From the NCBI GenBank assembly GCA_965262115.1, contig OZ253496.1, positions 640,001-704,000 on the forward strand: a stretch of DNA of 64,000 nt, read 5' to 3'. Every line of letters begins with the position of its first letter. Position 1 is the first letter of the stretch. This document shows positions 16,447 to 56,529 of the stretch, piece after piece. The position numbers and the translations under genes were made by a program. The notes beneath the pieces were generated by a model. The model was given only the letters and a program-made list of their open reading frames with translations. It was not told where the DNA came from and did not search any database. The stretch is from Nitrospinales bacterium (GTDB lineage Bacteria > Nitrospinota > Nitrospinia > Nitrospinales > VA-1).

Positions 16447-16683
16447 GTCTTTCCCCTTTTTTGACTTGCGCAAAGGTCCCCCTGACAAGGAGACCTTTGC
16501 ATAACCCGAGACCCTCATTGATCCTCCCCTCTCATGAGGGGAGGTCTGGAGGGGTGTGGATTATTTTACGGAATTCATAATCCAACCCTCCCCTGGCCCC
16601 TCCCTATGAAGGGAGGGGAGATTTCTGCTTCCGCTTTCAACTTACACAAAGCTTGATCTTCCCCTGTTTTAGTGGACAGTTAG

Positions 16684-17547
16684 TTAAGAGGCATAGGCCT
16701 GTTTCTCGAATTCGGCAGGGCTGAGATAGCCGAGATATGAGTGACGGCGCTGCCGATTATAAAACACTTCGATATATTCAAAAATATCCTTCTTTGCTTG
16801 CTGACGGGTTTTGTAGTTCCGGTTATGAATGAGTTCCACTTTGAGAGTATGGAAAAAACTCTCCGCCACGGCGTTATCCCAGCAATCGCCCTTCCGGCTC
16901 ATACTGCACTCTATCCCATGAACATTGAGCAAGGCTTGAAAATCGTTGCAGGCATATTGAACCCCCCGGTCAGAATGGTGAATCAATCCCGGTTTCATGC
17001 CGCCGTTCTTCATTGCCATATTTAAAGCTCTCATTACCAACCAATGGGTTATCCAACGATCCATGGCCCAACCAATAACTTTACGGTGGAATAAATCCAG
17101 CGTCACCGCAAGGTATAACCAGCCCTCTTGAGTCGGGATATAGGTGATATCCGAAACCCAGCATTGACCGGGCTCAGCAACATTAAACCGCCGTTGCAGT
17201 TTGTTTTTTGCCACCGGGTGATTATGTTTGGAATCGGTTGTCACCCTGAACTTTCTTTTGTGCTTGGCAACGATTCCATGCTCGCGCATAAGACGGGCAA
17301 TACGATGCCTGCCAATGGCATATCCCTTGTCTTTCAAGTCCTCATGAATTCTGGGACTGCCATAAGTCTGGCGACTCTTCTTATAAACGGTTTTGATCTC
17401 ATCAACCCATCGCTGCTTCTCACGGCTCCTCAGGCTCTCGGGGCGGCTCAGCCAGGCATAGAACCCACTTCGTCCCACTTCCAGAACCCGGCACATCGGG
17501 CTTACCGGAAATGCTTCTCGATGATCCCGTATAAACCGATATCTCAT
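16684..17547 (-). CDS. IS3 OrfB (DDE integrase)
   Basis: [26 protein letters not shown]. Confidence 0.93.
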
Positions 17548-17583
17548 TGGGAACCCTTCGAGTACCCCTTGTATGTTGTTCAT

Positions 17584-17792
17584 AAGGGGAATTTGTAGTA
17601 GTTGTACCTGTGAGCCCTGTGGGAAGCCGGTTTTGTGTTTTCCACAAGGCTCACAGGGTTTGATTCAGGGCACAATAGATCGTTTACCCCTTGGGCTTTT
17701 AAGCCCGTCCCGAAGCGCAGATCGTTGTGTCCTATTTTGATTAACCCGAACAGTTGCCTGGGCCACTGAGCCCGCATCGGCAAGGCTGGGAG
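17584..17792 (+). ncRNA. IS110 bridge RNA (5' hairpin, target-binding loop, donor-binding loop); ends approximate
   Basis: Internal-loop segments match the actual target (TACCCCTT 17685-17692; CCCGAAG 17709-17715) and the circle junction (ACAGTTGC 17750-17757; CAAG 17781-17784). Confidence 0.85.
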
Positions 17793-17800
17793 ACCAAATT

Positions 17801-18751
17801 ATGAATCAGAAACCCCATTTTATTGGCATCGATATTTCTAAACTCCATCTGGATGTTGCTGACAGCATGACTCAAGAAACCTGGCAAACCGCTAACAATG
17901 AGGAAGGAATTGCTGGTTTGGTCGAGAGTTTATCCGCCTTAAATCCTCCATTGATCGTTTTGGAAGCCACAGGCGGCTTAGAGATCCCGTTGGCTTCGGC
18001 CCTGGTTGCGGGTCGACTGCCAGTAGCCGTGGTCAACCCACGGCAAGTTCGTGATTTTGCCAAAGCCACCGGGAAACTGGCAAAAACCGATGTCATTGAT
18101 TCTCTTGTGCTGGCCCATTTTGCCAGGGCCGTACGTCCTGAGGTCAGGAAAATCAAAGACGAAGAATCTCTGGAACTCTCAGCTCTAGTGACACGCCGTC
18201 GCCAGTTGATCGAGATGCTGACCAAAGAAAAAACCCGTCTAAAACAAGCTCCAAAATGGATATGTAAAGACATTAAGGAGCATATCGAATCTCTTAAAAA
18301 ACGCTTGCGAAAAATCGATGGCGACCTTTCCAGAACCATCAAAAACAGTTCTGCCTGGCGTGAGCACGACCAGATCATACAAAGTGTTCCCGGTGCCGGT
18401 CCCGTTCTGGCTGTCAACCTCTTGGCCGGGGTTCCGGAACTTGGAGTTCTTAATCAGAAGCAAATCGCCGCCCTCATCGGTCTCGCTCCCCTCAATCGGG
18501 ACAGCGGAAAGTTCCGGGGCCGCCGGTGTATCTGGGGCGGCCGCGCCAATGTGCGTGCCGCTTTATACATGGCCGCCGTCACTGCCATGCAGCATAATCC
18601 CGTGATTCGTACCTTTTACACACGCCTCATCGAAAAGGGCAAACCCTTTAAAGTTGCCATTACCGCATGCATGAGAAAGTTATTAACGATCATCAATACC
18701 ATGATCAAAACAAAAACACTCTGGAATGAAAATCTCATTGCCAGCACTTGA
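17801..18751 (+). CDS. IS110 DEDD recombinase/transposase
   Basis: GIDISK, LEATG, KTDVID, NRDSGK, RAALYM. Confidence 0.96.
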   Translation: MNQKPHFIGIDISKLHLDVADSMTQETWQTANNEEGIAGLVESLSALNPPLIVLEATGGLEIPLASALVAGRLPVAVVNPRQVRDFAKATGKLAKTDVIDSLVLAHFARAVRPEVRKIKDEESLELSALVTRRRQLIEMLTKEKTRLKQAPKWICKDIKEHIESLKKRLRKIDGDLSRTIKNSSAWREHDQIIQSVPGAGPVLAVNLLAGVPELGVLNQKQIAALIGLAPLNRDSGKFRGRRCIWGGRANVRAALYMAAVTAMQHNPVIRTFYTRLIEKGKPFKVAITACMRKLLTIINTMIKTKTLWNENLIAST

Positions 18752-18769
18752 CATTTAACACAGTTGCTT
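18748..18769 (+). promoter_or_regulatory. -35 half of the IS110 circle-junction promoter
   Basis: TTGACA 18748-18753; joined to the left end gives a 17-bp spacer and TATGTT (17572-17577). Confidence 0.85.
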
Positions 18770-18801
18770 CGGGGCATGAAAGCCAATGAAGAGGACATCA
18801 C

Positions 18802-19077
18802 AAAGATAACTGTCGCCTTTTTTAATATGTCCCGCTCCATACGAAGGCGAGCGTTTTCTCGCCGCAACTGCTGCAACTCATCTCCCGGCTTAAGCTGTCC
18901 TTTGCCGGGAAACGCATTCCCCTGATCCTCCTCATACTCCTGTTTCCAGCGACCCAGAAGGGCAGAACGGATTCCCAGATCCCGGGACACCCGGGCAATG
19001 CTATCGCCTACTTCAATAACCAATCGAACCGCTTCTAACTTGAATTCTTTACTGAAACTCCTGCGTTTGGTTCCCAT
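18802..19077 (-). pseudogene. IS3 OrfA, 3' end interrupted
   Basis: FSKEFKLEAV...LRRENARLRMERDILKKA; A-AAA-AAG slippery site. Confidence 0.9.
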
Positions 19078-19183
19078 AAAAACACCTCCAAAAGTGTATT
19101 ATCCACACTTTTCGATGTGTCCACCAATTCAGGGGAAGATCAGCTCTCCCTGACAAGGGGGATTGAGGGGGTTTGCTTAGGTT

Positions 19184-19335
19184 GTCATTGCGAACGTAGT
19201 GAAGCAATCCAGAATCTGGATCGCCACGCTCCTTTCAGTCGCTCGCGATGACGGGAGTGGGAGCTGCTAAACCATTTTCCTGACTTCGAAAATTGGTAAG
19301 TGGTAATTGTCATTCTGAACGCAGTGAAGAATCCC
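19184..19335. repeat. GTCATT-type REP-like palindromes
   Basis: gtcattgcgaacgtagtgaagcaatc...gctcgcgatgac; gtcattctgaacgcagtgaagaatc. Confidence 0.7.
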
Positions 19336-19356
19336 CAAGCCTATGCAAGGCTTATA

Positions 19357-54999: not shown

Positions 55000-55019
55000 G
55001 AGAGCTTTGCATAACCCCG

Positions 55020-55097
55020 ACCCCTGCGGGGCATGAAGTTTAAGGAAATACCCGTGCCGGGCATGAAGACTAATGTTGGGGATATTACAAATATCAC
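55020..55097 (-). repeat. two nested 38-40 bp mini-elements
   Basis: inner copy 55049-55088 lies within outer copy 55020-55048 + 55089-55097. Confidence 0.65.
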
Positions 55098-55156
55098 GTC
55101 TTCGTCACGTTGTTCCTCAGAATGACAAAACAGCCTTTTATTGTCATGCTGAGCTA

Positions 55157-55194
55157 GTGATATTCGACCTTTGCCTTCTTGCCCCGTAGGGGTA
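55157..55194 (+). repeat. 38-bp mini-element inside a GTCATGCTGAGC...TCGAAGCATCT palindrome
   Basis: GTGATATTCGACCTTTGCCTTCTTGCCCCGTAGGGGTA. Confidence 0.7.
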
Positions 55195-55239
55195 TCTCGA
55201 AGCATCTCGCTTTTCTGCTTTATCGACTTACACAAAGCT

Positions 55240-56529
55240 TGATCTTCCCCTGTTTTAGTGGACAGTTAGTTAAGAGGCATAGGCCTGTTTCTCGAATTCG
55301 GCAGGGCTGAGATAGCCGAGATATTAGTGACGGCGTTGCCGATTATAAAACACTTCGATATATTCAAAAATATCCTTCTTTGCTTGCTGACGGGTTTTGT
55401 AGTTCCGGTTATGAATGAGTTCCACTTTGAGAGTATGGAAAAAACTCTCCGCCACGGCGTTATCCCAGCAATCGCCCTTCCGGCTCATACTGCACTCTAT
55501 CCCATGAACATTGAGCAAGGCTTGAAAATCGTTGCAGGCATATTGAACCCCCCGGTCAGAATGGTGAATCAATCCCGGTTTCATGCCGCCGTTCTTCATT
55601 GCCATATTTAAAGCTCTCATTACCAACCAACGGGTTATCCAACGATCCATGGCCCAACCAATAACTTTACGGTGGAATAAATCCAGCGTCACCACAAGGT
55701 ATAACCAGCCCTCTTGAGTCGGGATATAGGTGATATCCGAAACCCAGCATTGACCGGGCTCAGCAACATTAAACCGCCGTTGCAGTTTGTTTTTTGCCAC
55801 CGGGTGATTATGTTTGGAATCGGTTGTCACCCTGAACTTTCTTTTGTGCTTGGCAACGATTCCATGCTCGCGCATAAGACAGGCAATACGATGCCTGCCA
55901 ATGGCATATCCCTTGTCTTTCAAGTCCTCATGAATTCTGGGACTGCCATAAGTCTGGCGACTCTTCTTATAAACGGTTTTGATCTCATCAACCCATCGCT
56001 GCTTCTCACGGCTCCTCAGGCTCTCGGGGCGGCTCAGCCAGGCATAGAACCCACTTCGTCCCACTTCCAGAACCCGGCACATCGGGCTTACCGGAAATGC
56101 TTCTCGATGATCCCGTATAAACCGATATCTCATTGGGAACCCTTCGAGTACCCCTTCGGGGCATGAAGACAAATGAAGAGGACATCACAAAGATAACTGC
56201 CGCCTTTTTTAATATGTCCCGCTCCATACGAAGGCGAGCGTTTTCTCGCCGCAACTGCTGCAACTCATCTCCCGGCTTAAGCTGTCCTTTGCCGGGAAAC
56301 GCATTCCCCTGATCCTCCTCATACTCCTGTTTCCAGCGACCCAGAAGGGCAGAACGGATTCCCAGATCCCGGGACACCCGGGCAATGCTATCGCCTACTT
56401 CAATAACCAATCGAACCGCTTCTAACTTGAATTCTTTACTGAAACTCCTGCGTTTGGTTCCCATAAAAACACCTCCAAAAGTGTATTATCCACACTTTTC
56501 GATGTGTCCACCAATTCAGGGGAAGATCA
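55240..56529 (-). mobile_element. IS3-family element copy 2 (1290 bp), inactive-looking
   Basis: same IRs as copy 1; orfA from 56464, orfB from 56133 with premature TAA at 55324-55326; no TSD. Confidence 0.95.
56148..56188 (-). repeat. 41-bp mini-element in the IS3 orfA/orfB junction; empty IS110 target
   Basis: removing it restores KKAAVIFSKGSQ* with an ATGA overlap to orfB. Confidence 0.85.

Follow-up and report, generated by a model that had tools for sequence, protein, structure and literature searches.

An IS110-family insertion sequence in a Nitrospinales genome whose predicted bridge RNA matches the hairpin of a multi-copy 41-bp repeat

The window analysed here, 64,000 nucleotides of a Nitrospinales bacterium (contig OZ253496.1, positions 640,001 to 704,000 of the forward strand), contains an IS110-family insertion sequence (IS) lodged in the hairpin of a 41-bp repeat, the mini-element, which is itself carried by an IS3. 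We conclude that this is very probably an IS621-type element whose bridge RNA targets the hairpin of the multi-copy repeat, a reading built on the observed anatomy of the element, the precision of its insertion, the match and covariation between guides and targets, and a census of its copies. A bridge RNA transcribed from the left end would guide the recombinase: its target loop would read a site of 12 to 14 nt, (TT)TACCC-CT-TCGGG, comprising the 5' arm, loop and 3' arm of the repeat hairpin, while its donor loop would read ACAGTTG-CT-TGTAT, the sequence formed where the two ends meet in the excised circle. The element would then enter the hairpin loop by recombination at the common CT, always in one orientation. 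That the RNA is expressed, that a circle forms and that the element is still active are inferences. With many copies of the repeat, one of them inside the IS3, landing sites are plentiful; the main lineage would have filled 21 sites with a TTC loop, 10 of them in the 17 IS3 copies, and an earlier lineage, since broken and differing by one base in each half of the guide, would have entered two sites with a TGC loop.

The element and its gene are laid out as follows.
17570..18768, + strand: IS110-family element, 1,199 bp counting one CT core, with boundaries common to 23 genomic copies.
17801..18751, + strand: recombinase gene, 316 aa (PF01548, 1.5e-25; PF02371, 1.9e-20), with homology to IS621 and ISCro4.
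18748..18768, + strand: TTGACA (18748-18753) and the right core CT (18767-18768), read from the sequence.

All features that define the family at the sequence level and were open to testing are present: both protein domains, homology to solved recombinases, a short core without terminal inverted repeats, a two-loop non-coding RNA, target guides and donor guides. The DEDD_Tnp_IS110 and Transposase_20 domains scored 90.3 and 73.4 bits, both above the curated cut-offs, and the protein is homologous to the IS621 transposase (8wt6, E 1.5e-30) and the ISCro4 transposase (9t56, E 2.4e-33). Its GID, EAT, KTD..D and SG motifs, which we take from IS621 to hold the catalytic residues, are identical to those of ISCro4 in the alignment. 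For the IS621 recombinase, S241 is named in sections of the published description (PMC11208158). If the right and left ends were joined in a circle they would read TTGACA, a 17-nt spacer and TATGTT (17572-17577), a putative promoter across the circle junction by analogy with IS621.

Insertion was precise. The left junction reads ...GAGTACCC-CT followed by TGTATG... (17563-17575) and the right junction ...ACAGTTG-CT followed by TCGGGGCATGAA... (18763-18780), such that the filled IS3 copy, read through, runs from ...GAGTACCCCT into TGTATG...ACAGTTGCT and on into TCGGGGCATGAA. An uninterrupted IS3 copy in the same window holds the undivided site GAGTACCCCTTCGGGGCATGAAG at 56147-56169, and comparison of the filled with the empty copy leaves a single CT on each side. 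This comparison revealed no duplication longer than the CT core, and no terminal inverted repeats were found at the ends of the IS110. The CT flanks both sides in 23/23 full-length copies, and the shared core is limited to these two bases because the copies in TGC-type loops differ at the next one. The original prediction, made from the sequence alone, had placed the insertion core in TACCC-CT-TCGGG, and both the junctions and the undivided site confirm this.

The left end, 231 nt in length, folds better than 200/200 shuffled sequences (z = -3.58). A consensus fold of 11 homologues, with 30 consensus pairs, has two internal loops; a stem closes each of them and a hairpin forms the cap. Compensatory changes occur in six of these pairs, five in the outer stem of the target loop and one in its inner hairpin. 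The parts of the predicted RNA are given below.
17607..17657, + strand: 5' stem-loop of the non-coding RNA, from the fold of the left end.
17668..17732, + strand: target-binding loop, from the consensus fold of the 11 homologues, the guide/target match and covariation.
Within the target loop, + strand: outer stem 17668-17681 / 17720-17732; inner hairpin 17693-17706; handshake CG 17716-17717.
17683-17691 plus T, to 17692, + strand: left target guide TTTACCCCT, reading in the sense of the target's left half, CT included.
17708-17715, + strand: right target guide (T)CCCGAAG (CCCGAAG at 17709-17715), reverse complement of CT-TCGGG.
17745..17790, + strand: donor-binding loop, from the consensus fold, with outer stem 17745-17748 / 17787-17790 and inner hairpin 17760-17773.
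17750-17758, + strand: left donor guide ACAGTTGCC, matching the right end ACAGTTGCT at 8/9 positions.
17776-17784, + strand: right donor guide ATCGGCAAG, pairing with CTTGTAT of the left end.

The left target guide (9 nt) and the right target guide (7 nt) match the site TACCC-CT-TCGGG, which is the hairpin of the 41-bp repeat. When the 231-nt left end was shuffled 20,000 times with dinucleotides preserved, a 7+7 match in the same order arose just 4 times. The arrangement follows that of IS621, for which parts of the published account describe a left guide that pairs with the bottom strand, a right guide that pairs with the top strand and a core present in both (PMC11208160). The bases that follow the guides are also those expected. 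The C after the right target guide is complementary to the G at donor position 7 but not to the C at target position 7, while the G after the right donor guide pairs with the target C7, and both conform to the handshake rule set out for bridge RNAs in sections of PMC11208158.

As originally proposed, the guide matches from TACCC onward and its first two bases mismatch the IS3-side flank (TT in the guide, AG in the flank). Guide positions 1-2 are TT in 10/11 homologues and AT in 1/11, whereas the flanks read AG, TC, AA, TG, GC and others at these positions. We therefore regard these two bases, from the comparison of homologues, as probably fixed loop bases rather than specificity positions. With positions 1-2 invariant, the effective left guide would be about 5 nt plus CT; if they are not guide bases, the IS3 site is probably fully cognate and not sub-optimal.

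In the donor loop, the right guide sets nine RNA bases against seven donor DNA bases. Such discontiguous pairing is also described for IS621, in parts of PMC11208160. In four homologues, ACAG has become ACGG (A to G) both in the left donor guide and at the right end of the IS. One pair of the donor inner hairpin is altered on both sides in diverged copies, yet is counted as broken in the consensus fold. With permissive Rfam settings, the only notable match is to sX15 (RF02234), a Xanthomonadaceae small RNA, at 17654-17810 on the minus strand (35.4 bits against a gathering score of 55; E 1.6e-4); it spans the full model length and covers both guide loops on the strand opposite to the bridge RNA, and the sX15 family may describe the same region of IS110 elements.

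Copies were counted with BLAST over this genome (G000), in which the window lies within a single 2.68-Mb contig. All 23 full-length copies of the IS110 lie in the repeat hairpin, which agrees with the proposal that the element parasitises a multi-copy repeat as its landing site in the manner of IS621, and the mapping of all insertions suggested at the time thus finds motif flanks at every copy. The left flank ends ...CCT in 23/23 and ...ACCCCT or ...CCCCCT in 22, the remaining left flank being an older copy of the IS, and the right flank has CGGGGCA after its first base (T or G) in 23/23. Beyond the motif there are 15 left-flank contexts (IS3 nine times and 14 that are unique) and 17 right-flank contexts. 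The 15 distinct left flanks mean that many of the insertions arose independently. Over nine positions the left flanks have 0 to 4 mismatches to the left guide, and four copies match at all 14 positions of the site; among the 29 empty CCCCTTCGGGG sites of the genome, five do so. A right-flank matrix trained on 110 empty repeats with non-TTC loops placed 13/23 right flanks above the 99th percentile of 4,565 control CGGGG sites. This matrix is ungapped and cannot score arrays of two hairpins, and six further right flanks consist of a truncated unit followed by a second hairpin unit, a layout also seen in empty arrays such as that at 55019-55089.

The guides vary together with the loops into which the copies are inserted, as the original prediction had suggested should be checked. 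Of the 23 copies, 21 lie in TTC loops (CT-TCGGG) and carry the right guide CCCGAAG; the two in TGC loops (CT-GCGGG), which are 87.6-87.9% identical to the rest, are alone in having G in place of T at the base that follows the left guide, together with C in place of A within the right one (CCCGCAG). Empty hairpins with the CCCC/GGGG-type stem include 46 with TAC, 38 with TGC, 34 with TCC and 29 with TTC loops, and among the 21 main-type copies none lies in a non-TTC loop.

Homologues in other genomes extend this relationship to different targets. At six other loci in four genomes the guides differ from those in the window, and the right guide fits its own flank at 5-7 of 7 positions and the left guide at 6-8 of 9. 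In both copies of genome G040 the reverse complement of the right guide is CTCACCC and the flanks are AATCCCCCT and CACCC. The guides of four copies in G029, G035 and G038 (L006, L007, L008 and L011), whose hosts belong to another family of the same order, fit flanks in a different repeat of the type TGTCATCCTGAG...CGAAGGATC, and in these four ACGG replaces ACAG in the left donor guide as well as at the right end. Sequences resembling the TGTCATCCTGAG...CGAAGGATC repeat are present in the window too (e.g. 19180-19260 and 19310-19340). Genome G016 has one strict match to the 41-bp repeat; the sites of its close relative of the IS have just the short motif in common, and 3/5 of the right flanks are not mini-elements. 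The flanks thus suggest that a short motif is read and not the 41-bp repeat as such.

Several observations weigh against this account. Rfam returned no family at its gathering score anywhere in the window. One position of the core is mismatched, with T in the donor but C in the left donor guide. The covariation in TGC loops rests on two dead copies, with the frame broken at codon 172, that share 45 nt of right flank. A truncated copy in G013 has the right guide CCTGGAG against the flank CTTCGGG and needs two wobble pairs. The G016 relative has the right guide CCCGGAG, and position 10 of its five right flanks is G, T, C, T and T, which implies loose specificity at that position. One copy in the present genome (1212814) has a right flank of hairpin plus CATG alone, with the rest of the repeat missing. 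The copies are not all independent: nine have the IS3 left flank and may have spread with the IS3. The 316-aa frame is intact in only 15/23 copies. Finally, among assembled contigs of runs X1, X2, X5 and X7, none bridged or skipped the IS110 at the uniquely flanked copy L111, all of them stopping at repeat borders.

It could be argued that the repeat is recognised through its DNA structure, a hairpin or cruciform read by the recombinase or by a host factor, and that the match to the left-end RNA is secondary. The core does lie in the loop of a GC-rich hairpin, and a target stem-loop adds specificity for ISPpu10 according to parts of a preprint (10.64898/2026.03.19.712850). We nevertheless consider this very unlikely, since the loop variants on the same stem (TAC, TCC and TGC) hold none of the main-type copies, the guides covary with flanks in homologues whose targets are not the repeat hairpin, and the majority of the G016 right flanks lie outside mini-elements. 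Even less probable is that one ancestral insertion was copied together with its flanks, through IS3 transposition or segmental duplication. The nine shared IS3 left flanks would fit such co-amplification, as would the association with IS3 of all six copies that share a 10-nt deletion (below), but fourteen left flanks are unique beyond the 7-nt motif, 16/17 right-flank contexts are not IS3, and the right flanks belong to several subtypes of the repeat.

We give least credence to the idea that the halves of the mini-element are the true termini of a longer IS, or that mini-elements are footprints or derivatives of the IS, even though sequence conservation in all copies continues past the CT core at either end. 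The undivided repeat is found hundreds of times with no IS in it (235 copies for the eight most frequent hairpin types; 93 strict-pattern matches in this genome), and reading of the sequences revealed no similarity between the repeat and the IS ends. The strict pattern was moreover found in 20/22 other genomes of the genus (0 to 307 matches each; 307 in G013 and none in G009), whereas the left end of the IS110 occurs in only 3/22, making the repeat older and more widespread than the IS.

The repeat itself is a unit of about 41 bp with a sharp start at TA, followed after the hairpin by CAYGAAG, a purine-rich stretch and ATCAC(A/G). The hairpin pattern CCCN-TNC-NGGG-CA has 384 matches in the genome, with all four bases in the middle of the loop, and its fourth stem pair covaries (C-G, G-C and T-A). 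The hairpin had been called the most conserved part of the mini-element; the hairpin and the GGGCA.GA after it are indeed the most informative columns (258 copies found by their tails), but the matrix comes from copies selected by their hairpin, and the claim is supported only in part. Copies are mostly extragenic, with 35/193 in frames of at least 150 codons as compared with 80% of the genome, and no strand bias by replichore, which would point to single-strand transposition, was detected among them (58/53 and 42/40). Outside the genus, the strict pattern had no match in the 18 genomes searched; a reversed control also gave 0 matches. In addition to those in the IS3 copies, the window holds stand-alone mini-elements.
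55019..55089, + strand: array with a TGC-loop unit at 55019-55048, then a unit with a CCCG/CGGG stem from 55049; empty.
55150..55195, - strand: mini-element with a TAC loop, hairpin at 55183-55193; empty.
The two further copies named in the original prediction, ACCCCTGCGGG (55020-55030, + strand) and ACCCCTACGGG (55183-55193, - strand), are accordingly empty as it stated.

The IS3 that carries the filled site is on the opposite strand to the IS110, with orfB to the left of the insertion and orfA to the right.
16656..17562, - strand: orfB-side part of the IS3 (rve and HTH_21 domains; BLAST to the intact copy).
ATG at 17547, end at 16684, - strand: native orfB; the listed open reading frame 16684..17583 runs into the IS110 by accident.
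17563..17569, + strand: left 7 nt of the split mini-element, TACCCCT, with the core CT at 17568-17569.
18769..18802, + strand: right 34 nt of the split mini-element, TCGGGGCATGAA...ACATCACA.
18803..19142, - strand: orfA-side part of the IS3 (PF01527), with the slippery sequence A AAA AAG at 18817-18823.
55240..56529, - strand: intact IS3 copy, with the empty undivided mini-element at 56149-56189.

In relatives of the IS3 from G016, G003 and G015, ...ATCTT and CTCGAA... adjoin and precisely the 41 nt of the repeat are missing, and no target duplication was found around the 41-nt repeat in the IS3. The repeat lies between the slippery A AAA AAG and the start of orfB. With the repeat in place, orfB lies in +1 with respect to orfA, and a -1 shift at A AAA AAG leads into a frame that closes after 26 codons; removal of the 41 nt restores the usual -1 arrangement of orfA and orfB. 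Seventeen near-identical IS3 copies all carry the repeat despite the +1 frame. Either transposition of the IS3 continues in the absence of the normal fusion protein, or the repeat arrived shortly before the IS3 expanded. Ten of the 17 IS3 left halves adjoin an IS110, and seven IS3 copies are intact.

Nested copies of the repeat were also seen, as were direct arrays. At seventeen places (e.g. 618616, 1085575 and 1413886) a left half-hairpin is followed by a whole unit of 39-41 nt and then by the rest of the outer unit; these comprise about six sequence types, and the inner unit always starts right after the third base of the loop. One such composite has itself spread to about 11 places. The clean insertion into the IS3 and the nested copies indicate that the repeat has moved in the past, perhaps with a preference for the 3' base of hairpin loops. 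The landing site had been described as self-propagating, and these observations speak for that. We considered a Y1/RAYT transposase as the mover and rejected it, as no match to PF01797 was found in this genome (93.9% complete). Across the genus, no relation emerged between Y1 and repeat count: PF01797 is present in 7/23 genomes and not in the repeat-rich G013 and G007.

A bolder and rather doubtful extension is that the repeat is an active mobile element of an undescribed kind, with neither inverted repeats nor target duplication nor a Y1/RAYT, which would insert at the 3' base of hairpin loops; that the IS110 lineages would have divided their guides between TTC and TGC so as to share landing sites; and that the whole would form a three-layer parasitism, with the repeat in the IS3, the IS110 in the repeat and 10/17 IS3 copies disabled.

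IS621 of Escherichia coli is an IS110-family element with a bridge RNA that inserts into REP (repetitive extragenic palindromic) sequences, as described in parts of PMC11208160 and PMC11208158. The element in the window resembles it in both protein domains, in a left-end non-coding RNA with target and donor loops, and in a CT core inside each guide. To judge from the same sections, it further shares the discontiguous right donor pairing, the handshake base, a -35 box in the right end and a natural target that is a multi-copy extragenic palindrome. It differs in target sequence, repeat family and host lineage, in having the core in a hairpin loop, in guide positions 1-2 that appear fixed, in a target copy that lies inside another IS, and in the presence of two guide variants and two loop variants in one genome. 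ISPpu9 and ISPpu10 of Pseudomonas putida offer a second parallel: parts of the reports on them place all copies in REP-type intergenic repeats (PMC12288879), and describe the involvement of a target stem-loop and copies that mark the borders of genome rearrangements (PMC12288879; 10.64898/2026.03.19.712850). For ISPpu10, however, the stem-loop is described in sections of the preprint as a 5' extension beside the paired site that acts as an extra gate (10.64898/2026.03.19.712850), whereas here the paired site is the hairpin itself. As with ISs of the superfamily that land in the sequence of another mobile element, the host element is disabled; their target is the terminal repeats of that host, whereas the IS110 targets the 41-bp repeat, a third element that had entered the IS3 beforehand.

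REP/REPIN elements, which RAYT (Y1 HUH) transposases mobilise, have a conserved 5' GTAG and form inverted dimers. Like REP/REPIN-RAYT systems (PMC1525189), the 41-bp element is short, bears a palindrome, has hundreds of mostly extragenic copies and is a preferred target of an IS. It differs in that the genome has no Y1 domain and hence no cognate RAYT gene, in the lack of a relation between Y1 and repeat count, in the lack of replichore bias, and in a palindrome confined to the 5' end of the unit. Insertion of IS110 elements into REP sequences has been reported (Tobes and Pareja 2006), and targeting of REP repeats by IS110 elements via a bridge RNA is already published; the present element is a new example. 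A literature search on Nitrospina and IS110 found nothing related. The published picture of IS110 and REP targeting is unchanged. What the element offers is a clean natural example of bridge-RNA programming, with an empty site, a filled site and 23 insertions in one genome, including two natural versions of the guide, each fitted to its own variant of the repeat, and with relatives re-aimed at other repeat families. It also illustrates how mobile elements become layered, in that a repeat carried by the IS3 exposes the IS3 to knock-out by the IS110.

Some copies have histories of their own. Six share a 10-nt deletion that breaks the frame (equivalent to window positions 18514-18523; copies at 1463651, 1635420, 1935078, 1896473, 1418003 and 2013362). 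Each of the six has IS3 at one end or both, as compared with 4/15 intact copies, an association with a hypergeometric chance of about 0.004 on the assumption that the copies are independent, which suggests that a dead IS110 spread as a passenger of the IS3. In several copies IS3 borders just one of the two ends, and one right flank is common to two copies; both patterns point to recombination between IS110 copies. Such chimeric flanks make the IS110 copies markers of genome rearrangement.

Three further loci are structurally unusual. In a truncated copy (G000:C1:2034250-2034420) the left flank ...GCTATTTACCCCT runs straight into nucleotide 114 of the IS, the base right after the DNA that encodes the left guide. 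The position of the fusion implies a deletion between the target half-site and its 10-bp twin in the bridge-RNA gene, which could have arisen by short-repeat deletion or by action of the recombinase on a half-matching site. At L112 (G000:C1:2143900-2146300) an older partial copy (nt 1-164, 97.6% identical) is directly followed by a full copy; the junction at 2144781/2144782 reads GTGTC-CT and then TGTATG, lies within the bridge-RNA region, and the remainder of the older copy is absent. Reciprocal nesting occurs at G000:C1:2518250-2519480, where an IS3 is inserted in the 3' part of an IS110 and itself carries an IS110 left-end fragment followed by an inverted copy of that fragment.

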